Below, piece by piece: positions 20,984-63,485 of a stretch of 64,000 nt of DNA (positions within the stretch are counted from its first letter, which is position 1; every line of letters starts with the position of its first letter). The translations under genes and the position numbers were made by a program. A model generated the notes under the pieces. The model was not told where the DNA came from. It saw only the letters and a program-made list of their open reading frames with translations, and made no database searches. The stretch is from a virus: the IMG/VR virus record IMGVR_UViG_3300033141_004211, positions 1-64,000 of that record. One strand, given 5' to 3'.

Positions 20984-21131
20984 TGAGCCTCAGCCACCAC
21001 CTCAGCCAAAAGGACGGGGGTTCTGAAACCCGAGCTAGCTCCGCGAACTTTTTCAAAAGTTCGGTAGAATCCACATTCGACTCATCCATCTCACAACACC
21101 TTGCCAGCGACAAACAACCATTGCCCGGCAA

Positions 21132-22172: not shown

Positions 22173-22190
22173 CCTTCACCTTCTACCAAT

Positions 22191-22849: not shown

Positions 22850-22870
22850 TCCAACCTCATCAATCGGCTA

Positions 22871-25380: not shown

Positions 25381-25429
25381 CTCACTCCTTTATCCGCGCC
25401 GCCTGAACTCATCCAAGCCCACCAATTCG

Positions 25430-27588: not shown

Positions 27589-27749
27589 TCCTCACACTCT
27601 CCAGCAACGCAGTAAACATCAATCGTGTCTAGGATGACCACATCCTCCCAGATCGCTACCTGTTGCGCCCTAGCCTCAGCCTCTTCCTCGCTATCAGCAT
27701 CAACAATGACGTACACCTCCGCTTCAAACACCACTTGGTAAGTGTTCAT
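27585..27749 (-). CDS. Small acidic protein
   Basis: 54 aa, from my translation: MNTYQVVFEAEVYVIVDADSEEEAEARAQQ.... It has an ATGA overlap upstream and a TTGA overlap downstream. Confidence 0.4.
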   Translation of the reverse strand: MNTYQVVFEAEVYVIVDADSEEEAEARAQQVAIWEDVVILDTIDVYCVAGECED

Positions 27750-31102: not shown

Positions 31103-31739
31103 CCTTGAATGTCCACACTAGCCGACCAAGGCTCTGCAAGGGCTTCTCGACAGGAAGCTCACGCATCATCCAATCAACCCCAGCCCGAACCTCCGGGCAC
31201 CTCGGGTGGAAATAATCATCAAAAACGATGACACCGCCAGGAACCAAAAAGGGGAACCATAGCTCAATGTCAAGGCGACAATCAGGATGCCAACCGTCAA
31301 TGAACAACAGACGGATGGGGCTCTCCCACCACTTCGCAGCCTCCTCGGAGGTCATCACCAGCGGGTGGACGTAATCGTCATACCCCAGCCTCCTCACGTT
31401 CGCCAAGAAGGTGGGGTAGCTATCAATCCTGTCCACACCCGCTTGCTCCAAGTAGAGCTTCCCGCCAGTATGCGGGTCAACACACCAAACACGTTCCCTT
31501 TTGGCATCTCGCGACCCAGCAGCGAGGAAACAGGCAGAGCGACCGAAACCCGAGCCAATCTCTACTATGGCACCCTGACCAGGCCCGTACCGAGCCATGA
31601 GGTACAGGGTCGTGCCTGCGACCTCTGGCACGCCAAGGCCGGGGATTTCGCTGACAATCCTGTGAGCAAGAACATGCACACACTTAGGTAACTCACCACG
31701 TCGCTGGCGAGCGATCATCTCATGCATTGAGCAAATCAA
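31083..31739 (-). CDS. SAM-dependent O-methyltransferase (Methyltransf_24-like)
   Basis: IVEIGSGFGRSACFLA ... LLFIDGWH. Confidence 0.65.
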   Translation of the reverse strand: MICSMHEMIARQRRGELPKCVHVLAHRIVSEIPGLGVPEVAGTTLYLMARYGPGQGAIVEIGSGFGRSACFLAAGSRDAKRERVWCVDPHTGGKLYLEQAGVDRIDSYPTFLANVRRLGYDDYVHPLVMTSEEAAKWWESPIRLLFIDGWHPDCRLDIELWFPFLVPGGVIVFDDYFHPRCPEVRAGVDWMMRELPVEKPLQSLGRLVWTFKDEDQIH

Positions 31740-32748
31740 GAACCCTTACACCACTGACAATGTTGTCAGCGGTGATGAACTTCAGAGCTCCACGCGCTAA
31801 CCCAGCACCGCGCGAACGATTCGTCGCCATGACCGTCATCCGCCTAGTCAGGGCATCAATATTATTGACCGGATACAGCATCCCGGTGCGACCGGGGAAA
31901 ACTATCTCAGGATTCCCACCAGGCCATATCTCTCCATATTTGGAGAAGAAGCCATCTGAGGCAATAACTGGCACACCGAGAGCCATCGCCTCCCTGATGA
32001 CACGAGAGCAACCTTCCCAGAGAGAAGACTGCACCAGGCAATCAAACCCACGAAGAAGCCCCCACATCTTCGTGGGATCTTCAACAAGGCCAGTAAGCAC
32101 AATGCGCTCGTCGTTATCTATAAGTTTCTCTAACTCACCTCTTTCAGGACCATCACCGACAATCACCAGCCGGCAGTGATCCATGTCAAGCTTCTTAAAT
32201 GCACAGACAGCCTGACCAACTAGCTTGCGACGAATCAAACGGGCTACAACCCCAAAGGTGAAAGTATCGTCAGGGAACAATCGTATAGGCTCAATGCCAG
32301 CGGGGGGGGCAACAGGTATCCGACAGACGACAAAACTCCAAGAGGGGACACCCTGCCCAACAAAATAATTACGCACTGCTTCTGTCTCACACCAATATGA
32401 ATCCACATGGAGATATACCGGTGTGACGTAATCATCCCCGAAGCCACCGACAAAGGCAAAGATAGGCCCACCAGCTTCGTTGATTCTATCAGCCAGGGTT
32501 GCCTGCTGCCCCAGCAGCTTGGTGCCATATAGAAAGATAGCACGCGACCGGCGGCACGTCTTCCTCAAATCGTGAACGTCAATAAGGCGCACATCACACT
32601 CACGAGCCCTGGCGGTAATCTGATCCTCTCCACCGCTGCCAATATGCAACCATACATCCACACCGCGTTCGTACAACCACTCTGCCAAGGAAAGGCAGAT
32701 TATCTCTGACCCACCAATCTGCCGCCCACCGCTTATTACTCCGATCAC
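31720..32748 (-). CDS. GT4-type glycosyltransferase
   Basis: MIGVISGGRQIGGSE at the N-terminus and an E-x7-E motif (EGCSRVIREAMALGVPVI). Confidence 0.7.
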   Translation of the reverse strand: MIGVISGGRQIGGSEIICLSLAEWLYERGVDVWLHIGSGGEDQITARARECDVRLIDVHDLRKTCRRSRAIFLYGTKLLGQQATLADRINEAGGPIFAFVGGFGDDYVTPVYLHVDSYWCETEAVRNYFVGQGVPSWSFVVCRIPVAPPAGIEPIRLFPDDTFTFGVVARLIRRKLVGQAVCAFKKLDMDHCRLVIVGDGPERGELEKLIDNDERIVLTGLVEDPTKMWGLLRGFDCLVQSSLWEGCSRVIREAMALGVPVIASDGFFSKYGEIWPGGNPEIVFPGRTGMLYPVNNIDALTRRMTVMATNRSRGAGLARGALKFITADNIVSGVRVLDLLNA

Positions 32749-33722
32749 CTCACGCCTCCCAAGAATCTCTCATATCGCTTTGCAACACCGATAACATCAA
32801 CATACCTTCGCCACCAATCCCTGACGGCGAGTTGCCAGTGTTGCGTGTTCTCGACAACATCACACACAGCACCAAAAAGACTAGCGGTCTCTATCTGATA
32901 GAACTTCCCGCCACACTCAGCATTCGGGAAGGAACGAGAACCAGTACGCACGAACCTCACCTGCCGACCACCATAACCAGCCACCTCCGCCGCCCCGCCG
33001 ACATTGGGGACTATAACTGGCGCGCCCTCACCAAGAGCCTCGCACACCGTATTCGGAGAGAAATCTCCAACGACTAGATGAACAAGAGCAATGGCCCCCT
33101 GACCATACCAGCGCGAGTTCTTCTTAAAGCCTAACCACTTCCAACCCGGAAGAGCATACTTTGCCTTCGTCTCACGGGCATAATCACCGAGCAACCACAA
33201 TTCAAGGTTTGGGTAGCGCGATCTGACTTGATCCCATATCTGGGCCATGGCCCAGATACTATATGCCCGGTTGAGACCGCGTTTGAACCCCACGTTACCT
33301 ATCTGGGCATTGCGTATTAGCAAATAGGGGACATCACTCTCGCGCCGACCAATCCACGTTGAGCCATTGCGGATTACTGCCCGTCGCGGTGGTAATCGCC
33401 ATGTTTTACCCAGAAGACGTTTGGTCTTCAGGTGATTCTTCAACCACTCTGCCACGAAGATGGCGCCATCGGCAACCTTCAGCAGCCGCCAAGTAGCCTC
33501 AGCATTCTCGTGGTGGAAACCACCAACCCTGGCGACGATCTTCTTGCCAGTCCGTCGCCGTTGCTCAAGCTTCTTCCAGTCCCGCGTGAAACTCTGCCAA
33601 TAGATGATGTGCGTCGCCGCGCCTTCACTACCGACGAAAAGGGATGGTCTGGCTTTTCTCAACAACTCATACTGCCGCCGGGCACCAACCCCGGTGCCAG
33701 AGAGATCAACGAGGACCTTCAT
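32745..33722 (-). CDS. GT1/GT4-like glycosyltransferase
   Basis: C-terminal SPNTVCEALGEGAPVIVPNVGGAAEV. Confidence 0.55.
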   Translation of the reverse strand: MKVLVDLSGTGVGARRQYELLRKARPSLFVGSEGAATHIIYWQSFTRDWKKLEQRRRTGKKIVARVGGFHHENAEATWRLLKVADGAIFVAEWLKNHLKTKRLLGKTWRLPPRRAVIRNGSTWIGRRESDVPYLLIRNAQIGNVGFKRGLNRAYSIWAMAQIWDQVRSRYPNLELWLLGDYARETKAKYALPGWKWLGFKKNSRWYGQGAIALVHLVVGDFSPNTVCEALGEGAPVIVPNVGGAAEVAGYGGRQVRFVRTGSRSFPNAECGGKFYQIETASLFGAVCDVVENTQHWQLAVRDWWRRYVDVIGVAKRYERFLGGVR

Positions 33723-33807
33723 TTACATATCAATCTTTCTTCTTGCGACGATCAGCACTGCTCCAATAGCCAAGAAGTTGTGTCAATAGGCGCAGGCAGG
33801 TTAGCTG

Positions 33808-34416
33808 TTAACTATTCCAACCCCACGCACTCTCACCCAAATCCCTGAGCAACCGTGCTGGCACGCCAGCAACTCTCGTGTAAGGCTCAACGTCCTTCGT
33901 GACAACAGCGCCAGCCCCAATTATAGCTCCCTTACCAATGGTAACACCAGGCAGGATCACAGCACCACTACCGATCACAGCCTCAGCACAGATTACAACG
34001 CGATTTTCATCACACAGGGTCCAGGGAACCAATCGGACCGCCTTCGGGAACCGCTCATTGCAGAACATTACCCCATGCCCAATAAAAACGCGAGGCCCAA
34101 CGATTACCCCCTCACAAACAAAGGTGTGTGACTTCACCTTCGATTGCGGGCCAATCTCAACCCCACGCTCAATGAGCACATAAGGACCAATATCCGAACC
34201 ACGACGCAACACGACATCCCTATAAAGGATGGTATGAGCGCGAACATGCACGCCCTCTTCTATGACACATCCCGACTGGACCACACTAAACAGTCCGACC
34301 TCGACACCGGACATTAAGGTAACATTCTGCTCAATGATACTATACTTGCTGATCCTTATATCGCTTGTATTCTCCCCCGCCTCCCGCCTACCAGTAGACA
34401 TCAAACAATCCAACAC
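33808..34416 (-). CDS. Left-handed beta-helix (hexapeptide) sugar acyltransferase
   Basis: Hexapeptide repeats: ICAEAVIGSGAVILPGVTIGKGAIIGAGAVVTKDV. I placed the start at GTG 34416, 8 nt after AGGAGG and just past the radical SAM stop. Confidence 0.7.
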   Translation of the reverse strand: MLDCLMSTGRREAGENTSDIRISKYSIIEQNVTLMSGVEVGLFSVVQSGCVIEEGVHVRAHTILYRDVVLRRGSDIGPYVLIERGVEIGPQSKVKSHTFVCEGVIVGPRVFIGHGVMFCNERFPKAVRLVPWTLCDENRVVICAEAVIGSGAVILPGVTIGKGAIIGAGAVVTKDVEPYTRVAGVPARLLRDLGESAWGWNS

Positions 34417-34417
34417 C

Positions 34418-35476
34418 TCAACACCTCCTACAGAGAGCGGGAAGCACGCCCTCGTCCCCATCAGTGCTCTGATACAGAGAGAGGTCGTGTCTCAAATCTT
34501 GAAAGGGTTTCGCTAGCCAAATGCCATGCAAGCTATTCGTCTCCAGGGACCCCATAACAGGTCCTTGGTCTATCGCGTAGCAGCAAATCGTAACCCTCCC
34601 ATCCCACCAGACACTAGCACGCTGCCAGGGTTTTCTACAAGAAAAGCGCCGCTTATCAGCGTGGTCCCACCCCGGATGTTTCTCAGCATCAATCTGACCG
34701 CCGAACCGTTCAACATTCTTGCAAAAGACACGACCGCCGGGGAGCCCAGGGATGGGCCTATACTTCGTGAGCGACCTGATACGGGAGCTTTCAGCGTACT
34801 TGCGGACGAATGGAAGCCACTCTTCCTCGTTATCCTTTAGTCGCAAAATCTGAATCCAAATCTGTGGCACCTTCTGTTGGCGCGCTACCCTCTGTCGAGC
34901 CAACTTCAATAACATGTCCACATTTGCCTGAACCTTCTCAAACTTGGCTCCAACGCGGATAGACTCATAGACAGCCTTGCTCACTCCATCCAGGCTAATG
35001 ATAAGCCTGTGAAGCTCGGAGCCAAGAATAGCCTCAATCAAAGGCTGAGTAAGGGGAACCGCGTTTGTAGACACAGCTATGCTACCAACACCAGCCTTAG
35101 CCAGGGCGTTCACCCACTGCACGAACTTGGGATGCAACAGCGACTCACCACCAAGATGCATCCACACCCATCGGATAGTATTAGGCTGCTGAACATTCCA
35201 ATGACTAATTTCTTTAGTCAATTGACTAAAAACCTTGTCCGACATATACCCAACTGGTCGACTATAATCAGGATCCCCACGCGGGCACATGATACACCGA
35301 CAGGGGCAAGCATTCGTGAGCTCGATGTCCAGTGCCAGGGGCATTGCCCGAACACAGGGTGTACCACACTCGGGGCACTCTTCGACATCCCTCGCATGAC
35401 CACTCCTGGCACGTACACGAAAAGCCCCATGAGTCAGACATTCATAGAGGTTGAATTCAAAGTGTTCTTTCTTCAT
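34418..35476 (-). CDS. Radical SAM enzyme with SPASM-like C-terminus
   Basis: CxxxCxxC in LTNACPCRCIMCP. The C-terminus is Cys-rich (CRKPWQRASVWWDGRVTICCY). An N-terminal zinc-ribbon is also present. Confidence 0.75.
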   Translation of the reverse strand: MKKEHFEFNLYECLTHGAFRVRARSGHARDVEECPECGTPCVRAMPLALDIELTNACPCRCIMCPRGDPDYSRPVGYMSDKVFSQLTKEISHWNVQQPNTIRWVWMHLGGESLLHPKFVQWVNALAKAGVGSIAVSTNAVPLTQPLIEAILGSELHRLIISLDGVSKAVYESIRVGAKFEKVQANVDMLLKLARQRVARQQKVPQIWIQILRLKDNEEEWLPFVRKYAESSRIRSLTKYRPIPGLPGGRVFCKNVERFGGQIDAEKHPGWDHADKRRFSCRKPWQRASVWWDGRVTICCYAIDQGPVMGSLETNSLHGIWLAKPFQDLRHDLSLYQSTDGDEGVLPALCRRC

Positions 35477-35662
35477 CTTCTCAAAGTCAGACCTGGTTTT
35501 CCAAACTATGCCAAAGTGACGATAGCTTGGACGGGTGTCCTTTCAGCACCCACTTTTGACGCTTCAACGAGAGCAGCGCTCAAAATCTCTATCGTGGACA
35601 GTGCCACAATCACAAACCTCAGGGGATAGCAACAAAAACGTCACGATGCACAGTCATAACCT

Positions 35663-36541
35663 CTAATCAGACATCAGCCTCGTAACTCGTTCGATCAACC
35701 TGGGACCAGCGACAGACTCCTCACCAGTCCTGACACATTCGATGAAATCATGCAGGGCCACAGTAAGTGGTGGTGGTTCATACACAACATTGGGAGAAGC
35801 AATCTTGCCATCCTCCCCGTGAGTGATCTCCCAGAGCTTCCTCGTCACATCGTCAATGATAATAGTCCTGGTGTCACCGACGAGCTCAATGTGACGGGAT
35901 TTCATGGGGTGGTGCCAACTCATAAAGGCAGAAGCAAAAGCATCGCCGATCACAAGATGCGCCGCAGCATAACCACGCACACGCCTCACTGACTCAACGC
36001 AGACGTTCTGTTTGAACAGGTGACACAACACCGAGAGAGGATGCGGACCAACCGACCACCATACGTCAACGTCACTTCTCACGATCCCCCAATTGGTCCA
36101 GTCAAGACGTGCGAACTCAAGGCTAAAATCGGTCTCCTCTATAAGCCCCTTAGCAAACTTCACCAAGGGGTTGTGCACGAAAACGTAGTCACAAACAAGG
36201 GTCCCCCCAACAGCAGCGTTAAGCAGCCTCTCCATATCTGGGATGGTCATCGCTGGCGGTTTCTCCACAAAAACAGCCTTCCCACGCCGCAATGCCGCAA
36301 CAGCTTGCTCAACATGGAGCGCAGGCGGAGATGCGATCACCACCGCATCAATCCTATCAGCTAGCAGGTACTCAAAAGTGCTGTGAGTCTTCACAGCACC
36401 ATTTAGCATAGCTGCTGCCCGCTGACGAGCCCCGGGATCAGGGTCAGCCACAGCCTCAACAGCGACCCCAACTATATCACGCAAGGTGCGCACAATATTG
36501 CCACCCCAATACCCACACCCTGAAATTCCTATTCTCAGCAT
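35663..36541 (-). CDS. Gfo/Idh/MocA-family sugar oxidoreductase
   Basis: Rossmann opening: MLRIGISGCGYWGGNIVRTL. Confidence 0.7.
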   Translation of the reverse strand: MLRIGISGCGYWGGNIVRTLRDIVGVAVEAVADPDPGARQRAAAMLNGAVKTHSTFEYLLADRIDAVVIASPPALHVEQAVAALRRGKAVFVEKPPAMTIPDMERLLNAAVGGTLVCDYVFVHNPLVKFAKGLIEETDFSLEFARLDWTNWGIVRSDVDVWWSVGPHPLSVLCHLFKQNVCVESVRRVRGYAAAHLVIGDAFASAFMSWHHPMKSRHIELVGDTRTIIIDDVTRKLWEITHGEDGKIASPNVVYEPPPLTVALHDFIECVRTGEESVAGPRLIERVTRLMSD

Positions 36542-42980: not shown

Positions 42981-44231
42981 CTACTCAAATCTCGCATAGA
43001 GACCGATGCTCGGTTCCTGCTTCTGCGAGGCTGCCAACGATGCTGCTGTTGGTTTTACATCCTCTCCACAGGCGTTCAAGGCCGAAGCCTCCAGTTCCGG
43101 CGGAACTCGCCGTACTGCTAGATTCCTGAGATTGATTGCGGCGTTTAGGTCTCTATCCAATACCGCGCCACAATCACATGTCCACACGCGATCTGATAAT
43201 GTAAGGTCATTGTTGATTGTACCACAGACATGACAAGTTTTGCTTGAAGGGAAAAATCTATCCACGATATAGATTTGGTTGCCAGACCAAGTAGCCTTAT
43301 ACTCCAACTGCCTGCGAAACTCATAGAAGCTAACGTCAGAAATTGTGCGGGCCACGTGGTGATTCTTCAGCATCCCGCTAACGTTCAGGTCTTCAATTGC
43401 TATCACACTCGGTCTCTCGCTATCAGGCTTGGCTCTCGCAACGATAGCAGAAGTGGCCTTGTGCAAAGCATCGCGCCTCGAGTTGGCTATCTTGTAGTGT
43501 AGCTTGGCAATCCCAGCTTTGGTCTTCTTCCGATTTTGCCCACCGCGCTTTCGTCTAGCCAATTCTCGTTGAAGCCGAACCAACTTGCGCTGTGCTTTCC
43601 GTAGGGCTTTGGGATTCTCAAATCGCCGCCCGTCACTGACGACAGCCATATCCTTCACACCCAAGTCAACACCAATTGCCTCACCAGTAGCAGGCGTGAC
43701 ATCAATATCCTCACGCACCTGAACGCTGACAAACCACCGGCCAGCTTTCTCGGTAACTGTAGCGGACAGGATGTGTGCATCAGTAGGGATATAGCCGCGT
43801 TCCTTGAGGCGCAGCCAACCAATACGTGGAAGACGAATTCTATCAGTCCTAACCCGGATCGCGCCTGTCAACCGAAAACTCCCAATGCCGCGCTTTCTGG
43901 ACTTGAACTTTGGAAAACCGACTTCTTCCTCGCCATTCTTGACGCGCCGAAAGAAGTTCTGGTAAGCCTTGTCAAGATCACGAAGGGCCACCTGAAAAAC
44001 ACACTTACTAACAGTGTAACACCAGGCATATTCTGGAGTCTTCTTGAGAGCGTTCAGTTGCCGATGCTGTTCAATGGCGTTACTTGACTTACCCGTCTCT
44101 TTGTATTCTTGGATACGCCTTGCTAGGCCCCAGTTATAAGCAAAACGTGAAGCACCAGCATGACAGATCAATGCCGCGCGTTGCTTGTTATTGGGATCAA
44201 GCTCGGTTTTGTAGGCCCTAAGAATTAGCAT
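42981..44231 (-). CDS. tnpB: TnpB (IS200/IS605-family OrfB RNA-guided nuclease), no tnpA
   Basis: The N-terminus, LRAYKTELDPNNKQ, is typical of OrfB. RuvC-like motifs: IGVDLGVKD, IAIEDLNV, DRDLNAAINL. Zinc finger: CHVCG...CDCG. Confidence 0.85.
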   Translation of the reverse strand: MLILRAYKTELDPNNKQRAALICHAGASRFAYNWGLARRIQEYKETGKSSNAIEQHRQLNALKKTPEYAWCYTVSKCVFQVALRDLDKAYQNFFRRVKNGEEEVGFPKFKSRKRGIGSFRLTGAIRVRTDRIRLPRIGWLRLKERGYIPTDAHILSATVTEKAGRWFVSVQVREDIDVTPATGEAIGVDLGVKDMAVVSDGRRFENPKALRKAQRKLVRLQRELARRKRGGQNRKKTKAGIAKLHYKIANSRRDALHKATSAIVARAKPDSERPSVIAIEDLNVSGMLKNHHVARTISDVSFYEFRRQLEYKATWSGNQIYIVDRFFPSSKTCHVCGTINNDLTLSDRVWTCDCGAVLDRDLNAAINLRNLAVRRVPPELEASALNACGEDVKPTAASLAASQKQEPSIGLYARFE

Positions 44232-44541: not shown

Positions 44542-44613
44542 CTCTTATTATATCTCTTATTATATGGTGGGTACTGGAGTACCCGGGTAGGTGGGTACTG
44601 GAGTACCCGGGTA
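44542..44613. repeat. Two pairs of tandem direct repeats (iteron-like)
   Basis: CTCTTATTATAT occurs twice (44542-44565). GGTGGGTACTGGAGTACCCGGGTA occurs twice (44566-44613). Each 24-mer contains the inverted repeat GGGTACT-GG-AGTACCC. Confidence 0.9.
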
Positions 44614-46653: not shown

Positions 46654-47424
46654 TCAGGTCACGGCAGAAAGCGCCTTATGGCTGCCCACCATTCCTATCT
46701 CCCTGGGCATCTCATCCCAGGTGCGGCCCCGGAGAACTCGCCCCGCGCGCTTCTTTCTGAGCCCTCCCCATTGTTTGAAAAAGAAGGGTACATTAGCCGC
46801 AAGGCATTGATCGCGAATGTCAACGACCCACTCCTCTGCCATTGGCCGTGCTCCAGGTCCTGACTCACCCCCGACAATGACCCAGCCTATGCCATGCAGG
46901 GCGAGGCTTGGCAATGGGCCAAGCAGGGGCTCTAGTGAGAGGAATTTGAGGTGGGCGCTCGTTTGCCTGAGATGTCCAATGCGGAACATATAATCTTGGT
47001 TTTCCACGCTGACGCCCATCCACACATTGGGAGGCCAGTCAATCTCTTGATTGAGTTCGAGTAGCCGCCTGGATCGTTTGGTGAGCACCTGAAATATGTG
47101 CCAAGAAGCACGGCGCATGACATCGAAGACCTCTTGGATGAATTCCAGCGGTACATCTTCGTGGAAAAGGTCGCTCATCGAATTGACAAAGATCATCCGT
47201 GGCTTTTTCCAGCTCAGAGGCAATTCCAACATATGCTCATGTATGGTCAACTTGAAGCCATTGACATAGTTGGGTTGCCCCATGGCACGTAGTCGCAGCG
47301 CCATGCGTTCAGCGTAGCAGTGTTTACATCCCGGACTGACTTTGGTGCATCCCGTCACTGGATTCCAGGTGGATTCTGTCCACTCAATGCTTGAGCGGGT
47401 TCCCATGGGCCATACTCCTCTCAA
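46654..47424 (-). CDS. Phage Gp37/Gp68 (DUF5131) family protein
   Basis: Signature N-terminus: [30 protein letters not shown]. Confidence 0.8.
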
Positions 47425-49783: not shown

Positions 49784-50017
49784 GGGACATAGGTTCGTGG
49801 TGGACATGAGAGAACGTATGTTTGCAAGAATCGTGAGGGGACATAAGTTCGTTATAGAGTTTATATTCTTTATGGTCGTAAGGAACGATGATAAATTCGG
49901 TATCATAGAGAAATCTATGTTTCGTGTGTGCGTTATGTACGCAAGGAACAATGATAAATTCGGTATCGTAGAGAAATCTATGTTTCATGTGTACGTAAGG
50001 AACGATAATGACGTAAG
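49784..50017. repeat. AT-rich tandem and dispersed repeats
   Basis: GGGACATA(G/A)GTTCGT occurs at 49784 and 49838. A ~50-nt unit, AAGGAAC(G/A)ATGATAAATTCGGTATC(A/G)TAGAGAAATCTATGTTTC(G/A)TGTG, occurs at 49880 and 49943, with a partial third copy at 49997. Confidence 0.85.
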
Positions 50018-54096: not shown

Positions 54097-54327
54097 CTAA
54101 GCCTCCTGTTTCGATGCGCTCCTCAAGATTCTACGGCATCGAGAACACGTGACGCAGCCATGTTTGTCAAAATCCCACGACAGCCCGTATCTTATTCCGC
54201 ACAGGGTGCGGTTACCGTCGCCTTGCACGTGGACAACGGCATAGCCGTTCCGGATCGCCATCTCCCTACTCCAACATACCCACTTACCATCAGTGGATGG
54301 CTCTATTTCTCTAATCCAATCCTTCAT
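54097..54327 (-). CDS. Cys-rich small protein
   Basis: 76-aa ORF in an ATGA overlap with the ligase stop. Confidence 0.45.
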   Translation of the reverse strand: MKDWIREIEPSTDGKWVCWSREMAIRNGYAVVHVQGDGNRTLCGIRYGLSWDFDKHGCVTCSRCRRILRSASKQEA

Positions 54328-55208
54328 GGCCTCTCACACTCCTCGGGCATTTTGTCCGGTCGCATTCTAACGAAACGAGGATACAGGAGCGCACCCGACG
54401 GCATCACGGCATTGGCTTTGACCTCCATCACTTGCCCAACTAGCTCCTTCATCTCCTCTGCCTGCCCGGACATGGGAGCGACACCGACCTCCTTACCATC
54501 TGCCCACCCATAAGCCAAGCGTCGGTGAGAGGGGTCCATTTTCTCTGAGGGAGGTAAAGTCCGCAGGATCACAACGTCGTAGGTCTCAAGCTCCCATTTC
54601 CTCTTGAGCCAGCGAACCGTTCGCTTGCCGCTCTCATAGAGGGAATCGCGCCGCTTAAACACGACACCCTCCTCACCACGTCCATTGAGGGCAGCCAGCC
54701 ACGCATCAAGGGGAACGTCTCTTGGCTTTGTCTCTACAGCCTCCACACGGCTGTCATCCATCCTCTCGACGATAAACTGGGCCAAATGCCAGCGGTTGGC
54801 AAACGGGGTGTCCATAACACTTTCCCCATTGACGAACATTACATCCAGCACTACCAGCTTTAGGCCCTCTGGGTGCTCAGCCCTGAAGTGGGCTACGACA
54901 TCCCAGCCACCGTTGCGGTTTTTGCGTTCGCACTGACAGGCGGCCAAATCGCCAATGACCAACTCGCAGTCCAACATGGTTCCGACTGCAAGTGGCAAGT
55001 TGCGAAAAACCTTCTCCGCGCTCATCATCCGTTTGCCGGCGCGGGAGAACATTTCCACCGTTCCGCACGGTTGGCGAACCACTAAGCATCTGTGTCCGTC
55101 AACCTTCACGGTTGCCACCCAGTCTGGACTGCCGAAGACCTCAGCCTCGTATTTATCGCTCCACCTGGCGGGGAGCATTGGCTTATGGAAAGGTATTCTA
55201 TCCATCAT
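54324..55208 (-). CDS. lig: ATP-dependent DNA ligase (minimal, two-domain)
   Basis: Motif I: KVDGHR. Also present: LDCELV, EGVVFK and RWLKRK, followed by a C-terminal OB domain. 294 aa. Confidence 0.8.
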   Translation of the reverse strand: MMDRIPFHKPMLPARWSDKYEAEVFGSPDWVATVKVDGHRCLVVRQPCGTVEMFSRAGKRMMSAEKVFRNLPLAVGTMLDCELVIGDLAACQCERKNRNGGWDVVAHFRAEHPEGLKLVVLDVMFVNGESVMDTPFANRWHLAQFIVERMDDSRVEAVETKPRDVPLDAWLAALNGRGEEGVVFKRRDSLYESGKRTVRWLKRKWELETYDVVILRTLPPSEKMDPSHRRLAYGWADGKEVGVAPMSGQAEEMKELVGQVMEVKANAVMPSGALLYPRFVRMRPDKMPEECERP

Positions 55209-56139: not shown

Positions 56140-56937
56140 TCAGTCCATTAGCTGTCCTTTCACTGCGCATCTGGCCGCATACCGCCCATCCCAATAGGGT
56201 GGACGGTACGTAGTGAAGGCATACTCAAACTCTCCTTGCAGCCCCATCAGCCCCAGCAATTCGGCAGGCACAGGCCGCATCAACTCTCCGTCCGATGTGA
56301 ACACTGATCGATCCTCCCCCTCTTCCTCCACCGTCCATCCCCTTACCCGGCCGTATCCTCGCCGCCGTTTCTTGCCAATGCTGCCTATCACGGTCAAAAT
56401 CCCCTCGATTTCCTCCTTGATGCCTTGGACGTACCAGATCAAGGAATCAGTGATGATGGTCTGGAAAGGCAAGTACTTGGAGGCGAATTCCTTTTTGGCA
56501 GTGTAGATTCGTTTGTGCTGAGGTTTCACATAACGGTTCACTTGCTCGAAATTGATACGGCGAGTGAAATGTACCAGGTCATACTCATACTCAGCGGGGA
56601 TAGCCCAAGAGGAACAATAGACCCACAACCCATGTTCCTGGCCGTGCCCCCACACAGCCAGAGGCAGAAAATGACCATCGTCTGAAGGAATTTTCCACCC
56701 TTTTTCCTTAAAGATGCGGTGGGTTTTTTCCTTGCCGTGGCGCTTCAACATCCGGCGGTAATTACGACGATGACGGCTTCGCTCCCGATATTCGGGGTCC
56801 TCAATGATAGCAGATGCCAGAATACCGTCCAATGGTTGCCACCGGTCGAATATAACCGGGGCCATCAGTTCGGCCCGTACGACCAAGTTCTTATAACCCT
56901 CATTATCCATTCTGAGCCTCCTTACAGCGATCTCCAT
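56140..56937 (-). CDS. csf3: Cas5/Csf3-like RAMP protein
   Basis: 265 aa. The N-terminal PLDGILASA and the C-terminal glycine-rich loop IGKKRRRGYGRV are RAMP hallmarks. It is the last gene of the coupled operon. Confidence 0.5.
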   Translation of the reverse strand: MEIAVRRLRMDNEGYKNLVVRAELMAPVIFDRWQPLDGILASAIIEDPEYRERSRHRRNYRRMLKRHGKEKTHRIFKEKGWKIPSDDGHFLPLAVWGHGQEHGLWVYCSSWAIPAEYEYDLVHFTRRINFEQVNRYVKPQHKRIYTAKKEFASKYLPFQTIITDSLIWYVQGIKEEIEGILTVIGSIGKKRRRGYGRVRGWTVEEEGEDRSVFTSDGELMRPVPAELLGLMGLQGEFEYAFTTYRPPYWDGRYAARCAVKGQLMD

Positions 56938-57398
56938 CTCGCTGTCGGGTTCTGCGCTTTACGCTGCCGTCGGCGTTCGACTGCCATCTGACCAGTGCGG
57001 CGACGTGATTCTTTATAGGCCTCTGTCTGAACGAAAACAAGACCGGAAAACCCCGGTGGATAGTGGCGAGTGACGGTGCGGGGGCTAACGCCAAGAATGT
57101 TTGCGGTTTCAACCAGAGTATGACCACTGAAACGCAGATCGATTATCGCTTGTTCAGCATTACGGTAACCCAATCGCCGTGCTGCCAGCTCGATCTTTGA
57201 GGGTCTCGAACTGGCAGCATCACGCAAACGGCGGTGATCCTCAATACCCAATCCCTTCCGCCACAAGTACACCTGTGACCGAGAGACGCCCAATGCCCCG
57301 GCAATAGTCCCCCAGGTGCACCCCTGCTCACGCATAACTACTATCACATCGCGCAGGGGTTCACCGAATTCGGCCTCTATCCTCTCGGCAGCGTTCAC
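56922..57398 (-). CDS. Double helix-turn-helix DNA-binding protein
   Basis: 158 aa with a GTG start in a GTGA overlap. HTH segments: WGTIAGALGVSRSQVYLW and LVETANILGVSPRTVTRH. Confidence 0.55.
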   Translation of the reverse strand: MNAAERIEAEFGEPLRDVIVVMREQGCTWGTIAGALGVSRSQVYLWRKGLGIEDHRRLRDAASSRPSKIELAARRLGYRNAEQAIIDLRFSGHTLVETANILGVSPRTVTRHYPPGFSGLVFVQTEAYKESRRRTGQMAVERRRQRKAQNPTARWRSL

Positions 57399-58336
57399 AT
57401 CCCCCCCAACGCCTGCTCAATCTGCTCTTTATGAGAGAGCAGGTGTTCTATTGCCTTCTCCATTGTTTCTACTGCCAACGGGTGTTCCACCTTACCTGGT
57501 CCAACAAGCTGATATTGATGCAAATCCAATTTGACCCGCCCGAAGCCACGACTGCCTCGTCCACCGATCTTTGGCCGCTCGTAGAAATAGCCCAAGCCAC
57601 CGAAGAAGACGCCGAGTTCGACATCCGTCGGATTACGCAGTGTGAACCCGACGGAAAACATTGTCCCTTGCGCCAATGCCTCATAGCCATAGCGCATAGA
57701 CATCGGGCGGCCCGCCTCGTTGGCCTCACCACGTTCGGCTCGGCTCGCCTGTTCCCGTTGCCATGCAGCCAGAGTGTCGGGCGCAATATACGCCTGCCAA
57801 TCCCGGTTCTTCTTGTCATCGCGGCGGGTGAAATAGACTTCTTGCAGCAGGTCCTCGATATGCCATTGACCAGCCATCTCCCACAAACCCTCTGGCAAAG
57901 CAGATTTCAACTCGACGCACACCGGCACCCAGCGGTCTACGTCAATCCGCCCCCCCAGGATACGGTTGCCGACACTCGCCCCGAAGAGCGAAACGACCGG
58001 GAACAGCTTCCGGAGTTCGTGCTCTTCATAGAGGTCCACATACTTGGCACTGCCGGCCGCCACCAAAGCACCGCCGCCGGTTAAGAGGTCAAAGGCCCGC
58101 AAGTCTTCAAATTGAGTGAACTCAATCTGATCCAGACACCAAAACGCACACTGGTCACGCAGGATACCGGCGATAGCGTTGGCCGAGATGACGGGCATAT
58201 ACTCAAAGTGGTCATCAACACGTATTTTCTCCCGATGGAACTCGGTCACCGTTCCACCTGTGCGTTCGCCCCCGTGAATTACTGGCTCCAGGGCTTCCGC
58301 CGTGCCCTCAATACGGATCATGTTTCTCTTAGTCAT
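57395..58336 (-). CDS. csf2: Cas7/Csf2-like RAMP backbone protein
   Basis: 313 aa. Motifs: IRIEGTAEALEPVIHGG, PVISANAIAGILRD, LFPVVSLFGAS, and a terminal G-rich loop, PKIGGRGSRGFGRVKL. Confidence 0.6.
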   Translation of the reverse strand: MTKRNMIRIEGTAEALEPVIHGGERTGGTVTEFHREKIRVDDHFEYMPVISANAIAGILRDQCAFWCLDQIEFTQFEDLRAFDLLTGGGALVAAGSAKYVDLYEEHELRKLFPVVSLFGASVGNRILGGRIDVDRWVPVCVELKSALPEGLWEMAGQWHIEDLLQEVYFTRRDDKKNRDWQAYIAPDTLAAWQREQASRAERGEANEAGRPMSMRYGYEALAQGTMFSVGFTLRNPTDVELGVFFGGLGYFYERPKIGGRGSRGFGRVKLDLHQYQLVGPGKVEHPLAVETMEKAIEHLLSHKEQIEQALGGM

Positions 58337-58754
58337 TGTAATCTCCTTTCCCTTCTAATTCCTCCCGACGCTTGTCACGATACAAGCGCAGGAGCATGAT
58401 TAGCACCGGCAGATTATCTCGCAACTGCCGAACAATGCGCCGCTGATTTTCCTCTGGCAAAGCCAACAATCGAGCGATCTCGGCTCGCTCATCGGTGTTA
58501 GTGCCAACGTTCGGCAAATCCAAAGACCGCGCTATATGGGACAGGAATCCTTCCAATCCCCGCCCCATCCGCGCCGCTGCCCGCACCCGGTCAGAGAAGA
58601 TAGACCAGATGCGCCGGGCGTAAATTCGCCAGTTCGTGCGCGACCCATACCACACACCACGCCACAGGATTACCAATAAACGCCAGGCATCGTAATATTG
58701 CTCGACATCTAACCCCGGCGCCAATCCCGTCAATTCCTCACGCATATCATTCAT
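58329..58754 (-). CDS. cas11: Small alpha-helical protein in the Cas11 (small subunit) position
   Basis: Start placed at ATG 58754 (MNDMREELTG...), overlapping the queT stop. About 141 aa and predicted helical. The assignment rests on position only. Confidence 0.3.
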   Translation of the reverse strand: MNDMREELTGLAPGLDVEQYYDAWRLLVILWRGVWYGSRTNWRIYARRIWSIFSDRVRAAARMGRGLEGFLSHIARSLDLPNVGTNTDERAEIARLLALPEENQRRIVRQLRDNLPVLIMLLRLYRDKRREELEGKGDYND

Positions 58755-59223
58755 TTCTTTCCCCTTTCTCCCATACGCGGGCGACATAGCGCATGATAGG
58801 CAAGCCGCCGACAATTATGATGGCTTCGCTCGCAGCCACGCTGACAAAAAGTGGCCAAAAGGGTGTGGCCAATACGAAAGAGAGCATAAGAGCCACTGCC
58901 GCACCGGTGGTGAGGGCATAGCAGACGGCTCCACCCCAGGGCCAGCGTCGCCCGATCCACCAAGCCAGTAGCCCGCCGAGGCCATCTGTGAATGGCATCC
59001 AGACCAACTCCCAGACTCCGACATAGGGGCTGGTCAAGTTGGCCAGGATAGTGCCCAACACGATGCCAGGGATGGCCACCGGTTGCCATAAGACCAGACC
59101 TTTTAGCACTTCGCTGATACGGAACTGCAACGGTCCATAGCTCAGTGGGGCCAGGGCCACTGTGAAGACTGCATAGAGAGCGGCGATGAGAGCTGCGTAT
59201 ACGATAATACGAGTCTGTTTCAC
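58747..59223 (-). CDS. queT: QueT-family 7-deazapurine (queuosine precursor) transporter
   Basis: 158 aa with multiple TM helices. YAALIAALYAVFTVALAPLSYGPLQFRISEVLKGL matches the QueT signature. GTG start in a GTGA overlap after AGGAAGGA. Confidence 0.8.
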   Translation of the reverse strand: MKQTRIIVYAALIAALYAVFTVALAPLSYGPLQFRISEVLKGLVLWQPVAIPGIVLGTILANLTSPYVGVWELVWMPFTDGLGGLLAWWIGRRWPWGGAVCYALTTGAAVALMLSFVLATPFWPLFVSVAASEAIIIVGGLPIMRYVARVWEKGERNE

Positions 59224-59879
59224 TTTGATCCTTCCTTAGTCCAAACATATTGCGCCAGATCGAGATATGGCGTCCCCAACCAGGGCTGGAGAATCCCACG
59301 CAGTCGCACGAATTCAGCAGGGTTCTCCCAGCGCGTCAGAAATTTGCTGTTGTAATCATCATTCTGGATTTCCTTCCACGAGTGAAATTTTCGCAACTGG
59401 TGAGCTGCCTCCACAACTGCTAGCCAATCACAGTCAATGTCAATCGTCACCGTTTCAAACCGCACCCGCCGTACTGGATTACCCGCCAGATTCAGCGGAG
59501 CCCACAATGCCAGGTGCTTCCGCTTCATAGTGGTAATCAAATAATATCCGTCCTCGCTCGGTGGGGACTCTAAATGTTCCTGCAACAGCGGTCCCACATC
59601 AGCTTTAGTCAGCGACTGCGCCCCAGCCGCTGTCAACCACCATGATGACCGCCGCAAATCCTGACGACCGAAGTACCACACACAAGCGTCACAAGCATAA
59701 TCGCCTCTGGGGACACGCAGGGCGGCATAATCGGTGAACGTCTTGCGCAGCACTTTATCAACAGGTGTACCAGTCACCATTGGCAAACCGCAGACCGCAC
59801 AAATCTGTCTGCCAAGCTTCACCTGATTCCCCTCAATATTTGAGAAAAACCAACGAGTTGTGAACGTTGATTCCATCAT
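59220..59879 (-). CDS. csf1: Csf1-like (type IV large-subunit-like) zinc-finger protein
   Basis: 219 aa with an N-terminal CxxC...CxxC (ICAVCG ... YACDAC), as described for Csf1. It overlaps dpdA by 47 nt. Confidence 0.4.
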   Translation of the reverse strand: MMESTFTTRWFFSNIEGNQVKLGRQICAVCGLPMVTGTPVDKVLRKTFTDYAALRVPRGDYACDACVWYFGRQDLRRSSWWLTAAGAQSLTKADVGPLLQEHLESPPSEDGYYLITTMKRKHLALWAPLNLAGNPVRRVRFETVTIDIDCDWLAVVEAAHQLRKFHSWKEIQNDDYNSKFLTRWENPAEFVRLRGILQPWLGTPYLDLAQYVWTKEGSK

Positions 59880-60588
59880 CCACCCTTGCGATTTCTACTG
59901 CCACCCTTGCGTTCTCCACCGCCAATTCCCGCCAAGGGCGGTCGAATCGTTCACGTCCCCCATCCCGACGCCACAGCCACCCGTCTTGGGCATCGGTATA
60001 ATAAGCGATGGAATCTATGCTATCAAAGCACCCCAGGTCGCGCCAATCCATCACATCCTCCGGCGACCACCCTGCACCCAGATTGTGCAACCACGCCGCA
60101 CCCGTGATTTCACGTACTATCGTGCAGGCTTCCACGATACCACCACTCTCAGTAGCGGTCAGCGACGGGTTGGAGATAGCCACGAATCGAGGTCGCCAGG
60201 CTGCGTAATACTGAGCCTGACGCATAGCAGAATAAATATCAATCCGCTTTCGCTTTGGAAACTGAATCACCGGCACAATCGGCAATCCAACATTCTCCTG
60301 CCACCACTGCCAATTGCGTATCGTCTGTGAGGGGTTCAGAAAAACATCAGGGGCGATGCAGTGATAGTCAGGCTGCTTGACATAGGGGCGATAATGGCTG
60401 GCCAGGCTTTGCATGTGCCGTATCCCAATCCGTGCTCCCCGTTCTGCCAACCCGAACGCCCCCGAATCCAGTATCACGAACCTACCCTCTGCTGGCGGTT
60501 CTGGTTGGCAGGGAAAAGCGTACAAACGATGGAACCATAGCATCTCCCTGCTCATTTTAGGAAAATGAGGGCATACGAAAATCATCAA
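59833..60588 (-). CDS. dpdA: DpdA-like DNA guanine transglycosylase (TGT superfamily)
   Basis: 251 aa. VILDSGAFGL corresponds to the TGT DSGGFQ motif, WLHNLGAGWSPEDV to LxGxGxP, and CFDSIDS to FDCV with the nucleophile Asp. Confidence 0.6.
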   Translation of the reverse strand: MMIFVCPHFPKMSREMLWFHRLYAFPCQPEPPAEGRFVILDSGAFGLAERGARIGIRHMQSLASHYRPYVKQPDYHCIAPDVFLNPSQTIRNWQWWQENVGLPIVPVIQFPKRKRIDIYSAMRQAQYYAAWRPRFVAISNPSLTATESGGIVEACTIVREITGAAWLHNLGAGWSPEDVMDWRDLGCFDSIDSIAYYTDAQDGWLWRRDGGRERFDRPWRELAVENARVAVEIARVDDGINVHNSLVFLKY

Positions 60589-61620: not shown

Positions 61621-62142
61621 TCAAAAGCCCGAAGGCAGTCTATAATCCAGGTCCGAAGCCTCACCGCCGGCACTGACAACACATCCTGCGTTGAAGAAAG
61701 CTTCTTTAGAAATAGCAATAAAGGCACTGCTATGATCATGGTTCCAGGTAACAGGCCACTTTTTGTCGAAGATTCCATGCGACCTCGCTATATCCAAATC
61801 AATGAAAAACCATGCCCCGAAGGTATTGTCGTCCTTAGCCCAGGCATATAGATACCACCTGGCGAAACCTTGTTGTAGCTTGGCAACTTCGGTTGTCATA
61901 CCGCTCGGGCGTGTATGCCTAAATGTGAGATCACCATATTTTTGCCAATATTGCCACCTTCTAACGCGGCAGGCTATCTCGCCGCTGGATACGGTGACAA
62001 TATAGTCGGTGGCTCTGCATTGATCATCCGAAGCGTTAGCTACCGAGACATCAATAATGTCGCCCGCCACCTTGCGCACCACACGCTTAATTTCGGGCAA
62101 ATATCTATCTGCCCATTTCTTGTCCGCTGTCCAACTCCTCAA
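61621..62142 (-). CDS. Hypothetical protein
   Basis: 173 aa in an ATGA overlap with the ParB/MTase stop. No confident motif. Confidence 0.55.
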   Translation of the reverse strand: MRSWTADKKWADRYLPEIKRVVRKVAGDIIDVSVANASDDQCRATDYIVTVSSGEIACRVRRWQYWQKYGDLTFRHTRPSGMTTEVAKLQQGFARWYLYAWAKDDNTFGAWFFIDLDIARSHGIFDKKWPVTWNHDHSSAFIAISKEAFFNAGCVVSAGGEASDLDYRLPSGF

Positions 62143-63485
62143 ACTTCATTTCCCCAGACGATGAAGCCTGCCCGTTCCTTCCTGGCGAACATCTCCAGTC
62201 GTGGCTCTGGGCTGGCCTGCACAACACGCTCATAGAATATATCAGGTTTTTCAGAATGGCGCGTGCGTGGGGCTGGAAAATCTAACCTGAGCCCCAACTG
62301 GTTCAACTTGAGTGACCCTACGCGCCCGAACAGAACATGCTCAGTAGAATACATCCACGAGTAGGGTGTGATCCCCACGTTCTTGACCCACGTCATCACG
62401 CATTGATACCTCACACCCCACTTGCTGAAAAGCTCAAGGCCGGCGGGGAGATATTTATGCGTTACCCACAAGTAGACATGGCAACCGTTCTCGTCGGCCA
62501 GGTCTGGTATAGGCAATTCTGCAATCTCATCCAGGGTCATCGTCGGGTAATCCAAAACCGGTCCCTGCTGTGGTCTGACCTTGCGCTCTATTTTGTCCAT
62601 TGGCCACGGTGGATCAATGACGATGCAGCGATACTTCCCCCCTGGTATCGGCGGGGCTTCTACCTGCTGATTGCGGTGCAATTCACGCTTGACTTGCGTG
62701 AGACTTCTTTCCCCCGCTACCAATTCCGCAACCAACTCGGGTGCTTCGGGCGCAATTTCCGCAATCTCTTTCACGTCCTTTTTCGGGATATGAACCTGGC
62801 CCGACAGGATGGCCTGGCGTGCTTCTGGCCCGACCACCTCAGCAATCCTATCCACAGACCGGGCAAATTCGGCGTCACGTATTACAGTCTGCCAGTGCGT
62901 GCCTGTTTGCTGCGCTATACGCTTGGATGTCTCGCCAATAATTCTATCATTTTGATAGGATTTTTGGGGCCTACCGACGCCTTTCTTCTCATTCTCATAC
63001 CATTTCCCTCTCAGGTAGCTTGCTTGCTGTGGTGTGAGATTTCGCCGGCCTAACTGGTTGCGCACAATCCACAGCCTGGCAGCGTCACGGTCTGGCAAGT
63101 CAATCTCTATAGTATCATAATCCAGACCGTGCTTCTCTGCCACAAGCAAGCGGTTATGACCATCAAGCAAAATTCCCCGCCATGTTACCAGCGGGTCACG
63201 GATGCCCTCAGAAATAAGATTGCGCTCTAATTGCGCAAACTCTTCTTCCCTGATGGGCGGAATCAAGGACTTGAACTCAGGATCAACTATCAATGTCCTT
63301 GCCTTTCTGTCCAGACAGAAGCCCATTATCCGGCGCGCCAACTCACGTATCGCCACCTCAACAACCCCCGTCTTCGGTATCCCCAGGTGGGCGGATAGGC
63401 GCTCAATCAGTTGTTGCGCCCTCTCTGTTAGCCTGAAACTACACGGGTATTTTTCTTCATGCCCGTATCGTATCACACAATACAC
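62139..63485 (-). CDS. RHH - ParB-like nuclease domain - HTH - MT-A70 (N6-adenine) methyltransferase fusion
   Basis: RHH-like segment: SFRLTERAQQLIERL. ParB box: IRDPLVTWRGILLDGHNRLLVA. MT-A70 catalytic motif: CIVIDPPWPM. The track start is a GTG and the true start is uncertain. Confidence 0.75.
   Translation of the reverse strand: MYCVIRYGHEEKYPCSFRLTERAQQLIERLSAHLGIPKTGVVEVAIRELARRIMGFCLDRKARTLIVDPEFKSLIPPIREEEFAQLERNLISEGIRDPLVTWRGILLDGHNRLLVAEKHGLDYDTIEIDLPDRDAARLWIVRNQLGRRNLTPQQASYLRGKWYENEKKGVGRPQKSYQNDRIIGETSKRIAQQTGTHWQTVIRDAEFARSVDRIAEVVGPEARQAILSGQVHIPKKDVKEIAEIAPEAPELVAELVAGERSLTQVKRELHRNQQVEAPPIPGGKYRCIVIDPPWPMDKIERKVRPQQGPVLDYPTMTLDEIAELPIPDLADENGCHVYLWVTHKYLPAGLELFSKWGVRYQCVMTWVKNVGITPYSWMYSTEHVLFGRVGSLKLNQLGLRLDFPAPRTRHSEKPDIFYERVVQASPEPRLEMFARKERAGFIVWGNEV

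Follow-up and report, generated by a model that had tools for sequence, protein, structure and literature searches.

IMG/VR virus record IMGVR_UViG_3300033141_004211 was analyzed over its positions 1 to 64,000, a 64-kb stretch that is called the window here; the contig itself is ~100 kb long, and all negative results given for the window hold for these 64 kb. The window is a segment of a tailed-phage genome, with genes for a tape measure protein, a head protease, the portal region, an exonuclease, and an ATP-dependent ligase, and nearly all of its genes lie on the minus strand. Positions 56140 to 60588 of this strand hold a single run of seven open reading frames (ORFs), which encode, in order, a tRNA-guanine transglycosylase (TGT)-like enzyme, Csf1, QueT, Cas11, Csf2, a double helix-turn-helix (HTH) protein, and Csf3 (Table 1). 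The operon is a new variant of CRISPR-Cas subtype IV-B, defined by a dedicated DpdA-like transglycosylase, and its Csf complex probably works with this enzyme to insert a 7-deazaguanine base into nucleic acid, probably DNA.

The junctions between the seven genes were read directly in the sequence. The TGT-like gene overlaps csf1 by 47 nt, csf1 overlaps queT by 4 nt (GTGA), queT overlaps cas11 by 8 nt when the Cas11 start is taken as ATG 58754, cas11 overlaps csf2 by 8 nt, and csf2 overlaps the HTH gene by 4 nt (GTGA). At the last junction, the two genes overlap by 16 nt or, with Csf3 starting at ATG 56910, are separated by an 11-nt gap; ATG 56910 is the more likely start because it is preceded by an AAGGAGG Shine-Dalgarno sequence. 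Since the genes overlap, or nearly so, at their junctions, they are translationally coupled. A first-pass annotation, made from the sequence alone, had proposed this coupled unit of seven minus-strand genes, and after a check of the ORF coordinates, all seven were found where it had placed them. Its list of junctions was largely correct as well, the corrections being that the supposed ATGA overlap is a second GTGA and that its 16-nt overlap is more likely the gap described above. Scans for promoters and terminators returned consensus-level matches only.

Table 1. Genes of the Csf-transglycosylase operon in the window
Gene product	Position	Strand	Basis and remarks
TGT-fold guanine transglycosylase, minimal DpdA-family	59833..60588	-	AlphaFold model and Foldseek; likely start ATG 60585
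Csf1, type IV Cas8-like large subunit	59220..59879	-	PADLOC, TIGR03114, PF27781
QueT-family membrane transporter	58747..59223	-	PF06177, phrog_27044
Type IV Cas11 small subunit	58329..58754	-	PADLOC typeIV_Cas11, PDB 7jhy chain h
Csf2, type IV Cas7 backbone subunit	57395..58336	-	PADLOC Csf2_0_IV, phrog_22746, PDB 7jhy
Double helix-turn-helix protein	56922..57398	-	HTH_23, HTH_28
Csf3, type IV Cas5 subunit	56140..56937	-	PADLOC Csf3_0_IV, TIGR03116; ATG 56910 start likelier

Every gene assignment of the first-pass annotation was upheld by profile or structure searches, including the two RAMP/Csf proteins on which its type IV reading depended. Csf2 matched PADLOC Csf2_0_IV (E value, 7.3e-57) and phrog_22746 (3.8e-48), and a profile built from 22 relatives matched PDB 11fs, annotated as "Cas7c" (8e-42), and the IV-B Csf2 of PDB 7jhy (4.8e-36); the protein is 35% identical to orf42 of Skermania phage SPI1. 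Csf3, which is 256 amino acids long from ATG 56910, matched PADLOC Csf3_0_IV (4.9e-41), TIGR03116 (2e-10), and a type IV-A Csf3 in the PDB (4e-3). Csf1 was recognized by PADLOC Csf1_0_IV (6.9e-25; model positions 21 to 213 of 227), by TIGR03114 (2.1e-12, under the curated cutoff), and by a precomputed Pfam match to PF27781 (Csf1), and a CxxC...CxxC zinc-finger motif (CAVC...CDAC) is visible at its N terminus. Cas11, with 141 amino acids from ATG 58754 in a frame that is open back to TTG 58814, matched PADLOC typeIV_Cas11 (9.4e-10) and the IV-B Cas11 in chain h of PDB 7jhy (1.3e-3). The NCBIfam equivalogs for Csf1, Csf2, and Csf3 all matched well under their curated cutoffs, and the Csf proteins of the window are therefore divergent members of their families.

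The remaining two genes lie among the Csf genes. QueT matched PF06177 over model positions 1 to 140 of 141 (1.4e-27; 97.1 bits against a gathering cutoff of 33.7) as well as phrog_27044 (2e-28), and by homology it is predicted to salvage queuosine or 7-deazaguanine precursors. The HTH protein (158 amino acids) carries HTH_23 at residues 19 to 48 and HTH_28 at residues 84 to 111, and shows similarity to an IS630 N-terminal region (1.2e-6); it probably acts as a regulator or is left over from the DNA-binding domain of a transposase.

The window agrees with the published description of type IV-B loci, Csf1-Cas11-Csf2-Csf3 plus a CysH-like gene (PMC8175902, 10.1101/780106, 10.1101/270033), in all but the last component. 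Csf1, Csf2, Csf3, and a Cas11-like small subunit are present, and a CRISPR array, adaptation genes, Cas6, and a DinG/RecD helicase are all missing. No CRISPR-like repeats were found in the window, and a PADLOC scan of its 67 other ORFs detected no Cas1, Cas2, Cas6, or DinG, the sole Cas-like match being a TnpB/Cas12f-like transposase; these scans bear out both the absences and the IV-B architecture proposed initially. A hidden Markov model (HMM) built from the CysH-like proteins of phage SPI1 and of one related locus (L008) found no CysH-like gene in the window, and PAPS_reduct was not among the Pfam families listed for 44 window ORFs (25 of 28 of one set). A TGT-fold enzyme is encoded in the same operon, in agreement with the proposal that a DpdA-like enzyme takes the place of the CysH-like companion.

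Canonical IV-B loci, such as those of the Mycobacterium sp. JS623 plasmid (PDB 7JHY), SPI1 (orf40-44), and other plasmids, have the same effector genes as the window, are likewise borne by mobile elements, and likewise lack an array, an adaptation module, Cas6, and a helicase. They differ in their "nearly invariant" CysH-like PP-loop enzyme, in place of which the window has a DpdA-like transglycosylase with a 7-deazaguanine supply gene. The loci of SPI1 and of Rhodovastum, Rhodococcus, Thermococcus, and Natrinema plasmids were found to contain Csf1-Cas11-Csf2-Csf3 and a PAPS-reductase-like gene and no transglycosylase.

The DpdA-like transglycosylase

The transglycosylase of the window, ~235 to 250 amino acids long, had no match at an E value of ≤1 in Pfam, including PF01702 and the DpdA4 model PF20314, and none in NCBIfam; PHROG returned a TGT match at 2.5e-4 only, and phmmer and profile searches against PDB sequences gave noise, so that structure prediction was needed. 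An AlphaFold model computed from an alignment of 37 homologues (predicted local distance difference test [pLDDT], 94.8) was compared with known structures using Foldseek. Its best matches among solved structures were the TGT of Z. mobilis and the archaeosine TGT (ArcTGT) of P. horikoshii (E value, ~1e-5; template modeling [TM] score, 0.64), and its best matches among viral models were DpdA-type proteins of phages and archaeal viruses annotated as "queuine tRNA-ribosyltransferase" (E value, 1e-8 to 1e-6; TM score, up to 0.70). The TGT fold that had been read from short motifs was thereby confirmed at the level of the predicted structure.

Across ~160 homologues, D41 (LDSGAF), D81 (APD), H168, G171, and G173 (HxLGAG), and S190 and D192 (SxDS) are invariant, and the DpdA of phage 9g has LDSGAF and SxDS in common with the family. 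As far as the sequence can tell, the catalytic Asp set is intact. Profile-profile comparison with hhalign connected the family to a short DpdA1-type protein of locus L036 (probability, 96%; E value, 4e-9), which in turn is 39% identical to 9g DpdA; homology to a characterized DpdA is thus transitive. The same comparison with Escherichia coli TGT gave a probability of 23% over 41 columns. The hallmarks of tRNA TGTs, the PF01702 signature and a C-terminal Zn-binding subdomain, were not found: the protein stops ~40 residues past the barrel, and a conserved Cys/His cluster is missing. Motifs and profile comparison therefore place the enzyme closer to DpdA than to tRNA TGT, and we regard it as forming a new, minimal branch within the DpdA superfamily, outside the described bDpdA and DpdA1 to DpdA4 subfamilies (PMC10516641).

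With the DpdA1-4 enzymes of phages, such as coliphages 9g and CAjan, the window enzyme shares a TGT-type TIM barrel, LDSGAF and SxDS, a phage-borne gene, and an association with QueC, QueD, or precursor import. However, it has ~235 amino acids versus 317 in 9g DpdA, its DpdA1 homology is visible at the profile level only, it is encoded in a Cas operon rather than in a FolE-QueD-QueE-QueC cluster, and the importer alongside it is QueT rather than YhhQ.

The structural matches raise the question of whether RNA, rather than DNA, is the substrate. In this alternative, a Csf filament would capture RNA, and the transglycosylase would exchange guanines in the bound or base-paired RNA, with host tRNA, CRISPR RNA (crRNA) or other small RNAs, and phage transcripts as candidates, and with these RNAs being disabled or reprogrammed as the outcome. 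The top solved-structure matches are indeed tRNA-modifying enzymes, a Trm1-like gene lies beside the transglycosylase gene in two lineages, and the IV-B complex is described (PMC7937560, PMC8175902) as resembling the RNA-targeting type III Csm complex and as binding heterogeneous cellular RNA. However, the motifs and profiles lie nearer to the DNA-acting DpdA, the Zn subdomain and PF01702 signature of tRNA TGTs are missing, and DNA methyltransferase genes recur as neighbors (three occurrences of N6_N4_Mtase, and ParB-MT-A70 in the window), albeit with weak methyltransferase matches of 1e-4 to 1e-5. We therefore consider an RNA target rather unlikely. DNA is the likelier target of the window enzyme because of its DpdA-like motifs, its DNA methyltransferase neighbors, and the precedent of phages with DpdA alone, whose preQ0 is imported or comes from the host (PMC6884629).

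Conservation of the Csf-transglycosylase pairing

Related loci were retrieved by the transglycosylase alone, except for SPI1 (L001), which was retrieved via Csf2, and were searched with HMMs iterated from the window proteins. The 42 loci, which together with the window make 43 sources, comprise 27 IMG/VR viral contigs, 6 GTDB contigs of metagenome-assembled genomes (MAGs) from Bacteroidota, Chloroflexota, Pseudomonadota, Spirochaetota, and Bacillota, and several metagenome contigs. A full set of Csf1, Csf2, and Csf3 was present in 36 of the 43 sources, most of which also had Cas11. Of the other sources, L005 and L016 are truncated contigs, L008 and L009 carry Csf1, a CysH-like gene, and a fusion of Cas11 with Csf2 but showed no Csf3, L041 showed only Csf3, and L001 is the SPI1 locus. 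L036, initially counted as a family member without Csf genes, was rejected as such; it was recognized as a classical DpdA locus, taken out of the family, and used instead as the homology bridge described above.

Removal of near duplicates left 25 lineages, in which the transglycosylases have a median pairwise identity of 35% and the Csf2 proteins one of 27%, and the pairing is kept down to ~25% identity. The first-pass annotation had named a neighborhood unique to this phage as a result that would speak against its reading; the neighborhood is instead conserved. The position of the transglycosylase gene varies, with at least five arrangements: after Csf3 (8 lineages), between Csf2 and Csf3 (7 lineages), between Csf1 and Cas11 (3 lineages), before Csf1, and between Csf3 and Csf1. 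L051, for instance, has the order Csf1-Cas11-[Phd/PIN]-Csf2-Csf3-transglycosylase, and the most divergent family members (P0302 and P0313) are embedded among Csf genes as well. Distances between transglycosylases and between the corresponding Csf2 proteins were correlated (Mantel r = 0.48, exceeded by 0 of 2,000 permutations), indicating, at the sequence level, that the transglycosylase co-diversifies with Csf2. A Csf2 relative was found in only 1 of 50,697 GenBank phage records, yet Csf2 is present at nearly every transglycosylase locus, which excludes chance co-location.

The closest relatives, L010 and L011, share with the window only the coding DNA of five core genes, and the conserved unit is Csf1-Cas11-Csf2-Csf3 plus the transglycosylase. 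Both relatives lack queT, a lineage-specific insertion that lies between csf1 and cas11 in the window; the HTH gene, found among the 43 sources only in the window and its own contig, is likewise a lineage-specific insertion, between csf2 and csf3. The gene-by-gene interleaving of Csf and modification genes noted at first is thus real in the window but does not hold as a general trait.

The family is a rare and separate group of about 100 clusters: among 1.84 billion representatives, a profile search returned 130 clusters at an E value of ≤1e-3 and 83 at ≤1e-30, tblastn with the transglycosylase found no match in the 50,697 GenBank phage records or in PLSDB plasmids, and blastn with the 4.4-kb module found none in GenBank phages. 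So far, the transglycosylase-type Csf variant is known only from viral contigs and MAGs, and its absence from GenBank phages and PLSDB plasmids may explain why genome-based surveys of type IV systems missed it.

Could the two parts of the module simply share an anti-defense operon, with the DpdA-like enzyme acting alone and the Csf proteins serving, e.g., as a sponge for host crRNA? Clustering of anti-defense genes is common, a sponge role has been proposed for IV-B (10.1101/780106), and the phage DpdA enzymes characterized so far act alone (PMC6884629, PMC10516641). We nevertheless consider such independent functions very improbable: the transglycosylase family is almost confined to Csf operons, where it often lies between csf2 and csf3; Csf modules are otherwise extremely rare in phages; the linkage has survived divergence to ~25% identity and repeated rearrangement; and the transglycosylase co-diversifies with Csf2. 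A Csf1-transglycosylase fusion also exists. This protein (P0069; L052 416-1411), a Csf1 zinc finger joined to a transglycosylase that keeps D41, D81, and D192, sits on a 1.7-kb contig and gives weak Rosetta-stone support for coupling of the two proteins. A second fusion (P0293; L053 6001-6897) is present on 23 contigs but comprises the C-terminal half of the barrel only, has no other Csf genes within 6 kb, and looks degenerate; for this reason, the fusions were not taken as strong evidence.

Genes for the supply of 7-deazaguanine bases have joined these operons repeatedly. QueT is present in 3 of the 25 lineages at three different operon positions (the window, L017-21, and L040), QueC lies inside or beside the operon in L033 (TIGR00364, 1e-45, over the curated cutoff) and L042, and QueD and QueC stand on either side of the transglycosylase in L049 (Csf1-Cas11-Csf2-QueD-transglycosylase-QueC-Csf3). 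At least six independent entries can be counted: three of QueT, two of QueC, and one of QueD with QueC. In the window itself, folE, queD, queE, and queC were not found among 44 ORFs for which Pfam families were listed. A de novo preQ0 pathway was likewise not found among these ORFs; their one radical SAM protein carries a SPASM domain and sits in a sugar cluster.

These recruitments bear on a further alternative, in which the TGT-fold protein does not protect DNA by modifying it but acts as the effector of an interference system. Here, the Csf complex would direct the TGT-fold protein to competitor or host DNA, where excision of guanine or insertion of a bulky 7-deazaguanine would block replication or transcription, a role akin to that which DinG, HD, and HNH effectors play in other type IV variants. 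Effector-like accessories define the other type IV subtypes, and some variants have gained nucleases (PMC12669027), glycosylases are known as defense effectors (10.1101/2025.10.29.685425), and Cas6 is kept at some related loci (L003, L006, and L022). On the other hand, no CRISPR arrays were found within 8 kb of the modules, even at the loci with Cas6, and the modules lie in phage genomes beside DNA methyltransferase genes, as is typical of self-protection islands. The repeated recruitment of QueT, QueC, and QueD moreover argues for bulk insertion of a base rather than simple excision. Overall, an interference role appears as improbable as independent functions.

Some loci also connect the transglycosylase with the CysH-like enzymes of canonical IV-B systems. 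In L008 (7222-8735), a CysH-like gene lies immediately upstream of the transglycosylase gene, together with Csf genes, so that both accessories occur in one locus, and in L036 (7869-9885), a 415-amino-acid PAPS-reductase-like protein adjoins the classical DpdA1-type gene with no Csf genes. CysH-like PP-loop enzymes and DpdA-type enzymes are thereby linked, which hints that the CysH-like enzyme of canonical IV-B may act in a related modification pathway. In a crude neighbor-joining tree, the CysH-type and TGT-type Csf2 proteins were interspersed, suggesting that the two accessories can replace each other. Collectively, these sequence relationships suggest that a single IV-B platform uses CysH-like and DpdA-like enzymes as nucleic-acid-modifying accessories, one in place of the other and now and then both together.

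Several other features of the related loci were recorded. Cas6 or Cas6e-like genes are present in L003 (6666-7346), L022 (8684-9331), and L006 (6815-7348). Apparent Cas11-Csf2 fusions, called where a single ORF matched both HMMs, occur in four lineages (L008 4526-6145, L012 5942-7315, L024 5822-7165, and L039 667-2061). A Phd/YefM-PIN toxin-antitoxin pair lies within the Csf operon of L051, between Cas11 and Csf2 (2239-2861). A family of ~310-amino-acid proteins with no Pfam or NCBIfam match adjoins the transglycosylase in four lineages (L013 7081-8001, L015 7111-8037, L027 944-1894, and L037 8814-9758). The Trm1-like gene, for an S-adenosylmethionine (SAM) methyltransferase resembling tRNA guanine-N2 methyltransferase, is found in L003 (7339-8001) and L014 (4575-5384) between Csf3/Cas6 and the transglycosylase, with weak matches of 1e-5 to 8e-4.

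A proposed role of the Csf complex in base exchange

The mechanism that we propose begins with the base. QueT would import a 7-deazaguanine base, preQ0 or preQ1, into the cell, and relatives of the phage would make the base with QueC or QueD or tap the queuosine pool of the host. Csf1, Cas11, Csf2, and Csf3 would form a Cascade-like, nucleic-acid-binding filament on RNA. The transglycosylase, which is without the C-terminal extension of stand-alone DpdA, may then use this complex as a partner that binds the substrate and presents the base, and would put the 7-deazaguanine base in the place of guanine, with DNA as the most likely substrate. The phage would probably benefit in that its own DNA is shielded from restriction and other defenses or in that competitor DNA is marked or silenced.

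A precedent for such a division of labor exists in bacteria, where insertion of preQ0 into DNA by DpdA depends on DpdB, a ParB-like ATPase, and TGT homologues have also come to work with other partners (PMC12839542). By analogy, the Csf complex may be to the window enzyme what DpdB is to bacterial DpdA, a separate partner that handles the nucleic acid. The bacterial DpdA-DpdB-DpdC system differs in that its partner is an ATPase and its genes lie in a chromosomal island, whereas an RNA-containing Cas complex is proposed here in a phage context, and DpdB, DpdC, and restriction genes are absent from the window. CRISPR-associated transposons and type IV-A systems with DinG offer another comparison, as nuclease-free class 1 complexes on mobile elements that bring a further activity to nucleic acid; unlike the window, they keep arrays and crRNA processing, and the partner's activity is transposition or helicase-mediated silencing and not base exchange.

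The proposal may be extended to the subtype as a whole. Csf complexes would then be RNA-scaffolded modification platforms, on which a DpdA-like enzyme swaps guanine for preQ0 or preQ1 at sites selected by the complex, as a naturally occurring system of "guided base exchange," and the CysH-like enzyme serves as an alternative modification enzyme; we put this forward only tentatively, as a more specific version that is less likely to be correct than cooperation of the complex and the enzyme as such.

A number of observations weigh against cooperation of this kind. First, the connection of the family to 9g DpdA is weak when made directly (hhalign probability, 31%; E value, 5e-4), and the assignment of the nucleophile to D192 rests on motif comparison: in one alignment, the TGT nucleophile falls on position 189, where only 121 of 162 sequences have Asp, leaving the equivalence uncertain by ~3 residues. 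Second, no source of guide RNA was found. Arrays and mini-arrays are absent from the window and from ~50 related loci, no conserved noncoding element was found beside any module, and only the coding regions of the module align with the closest relatives, with no noncoding similarity; a search of the window for a guide-RNA source gave no match to Rfam families, including preQ1 riboswitches, and no tRNAs. According to the sources cited above for the IV-B structure (PMC7937560, PMC8175902), moreover, the RNA in the solved complex is heterogeneous and shows no evident specificity, so "guided" targeting is hypothetical. Third, the characterized phage DpdA enzymes work alone, and therefore a partner is not mechanistically required. 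Finally, the Mantel correlation is only moderate, the Csf2 tree has long branches and no support values, and both the contact between the proteins and the modified base are inferred.

With these points taken into account, the link between Csf proteins and 7-deazaguanine modification that was first proposed from the sequence is supported and has been considerably strengthened, while we infer, rather than observe, the physical association of the transglycosylase with the Csf proteins, dependence on a guide RNA, the DNA target, guidance by the complex, and the biological benefit. The link was also proposed as one not described before, and no publication connecting Csf or IV-B with DpdA, TGT, transglycosylase, queuosine, or 7-deazaguanine was found in the searchable literature, in which subscription journals are thinly covered; none of these terms is mentioned for type IV in the updated CRISPR classification of 2025 (PMC12669027).

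Type IV-B, whose function reviews describe as unknown, is the least understood CRISPR-Cas subtype: it lacks both an array and a nuclease, and its CysH-like partner is unexplained. The variant described here trades that partner for an enzyme family of well-defined chemistry, with base-supply genes alongside, and thereby turns the question of IV-B function into a direct experiment. The recurrent pairing is the first concrete and testable clue to the role of IV-B complexes, and the DpdA superfamily gains a fifth, minimal viral branch. If the Csf complex does position the transglycosylase, coupling of a Cas complex to a base-exchange enzyme would be seen here for the first time, which would bear on phage anti-defense, on how IV-B arose and what it does, and possibly on programmable replacement of DNA bases.

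Other genes of the window

An MT-A70 DNA methyltransferase with a fused ParB-like N-terminal domain is encoded at 62139-63485, on the strand of the module (minus) and four genes upstream of it; in three related loci, the Csf module is flanked by N6_N4 DNA methylases. At 46654-47424 on the minus strand lies the gene for a DUF5131 (phage Gp37/Gp68) protein (Pfam, 4e-103). DUF5131 is also found near the canonical IV-B locus of a Natrinema plasmid (L047 1-644) and near a Csf1-transglycosylase fusion gene (L053 1596-2357), a recurrence near Csf-type loci that may be a coincidence.

The TnpB/Cas12f-like transposon protein lies at 42981-44231 on the minus strand (PADLOC Cas12f, 1.5e-87; phrog_506, 3e-123). 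A perfect tandem repeat of 2 x 24 nt (GGTGGGTACTGGAGTACCCGGGTA; 44566-44613) is located ~330 nt upstream of its gene, and a second tandem repeat, of 2 x 63 nt with 89% identity (49870-49995), lies within a short block of plus-strand genes.

A sugar/glycan gene cluster occupies 19922-36541 of the minus strand inside the phage and includes at least four glycosyltransferases, an NAD epimerase/dehydratase, a hexapeptide acyltransferase, several SAM methyltransferases, the radical SAM enzyme with the SPASM domain, and a Polysacc_synt_C flippase-like protein; a further glycosyltransferase-like ORF (9747-10922) is found among the structural genes. The phage also encodes a protein with a family X (Pol beta-like) DNA polymerase domain and, likewise, the ATP-dependent DNA ligase (ORF set 41250-62142 and 54324-55208, minus strand).

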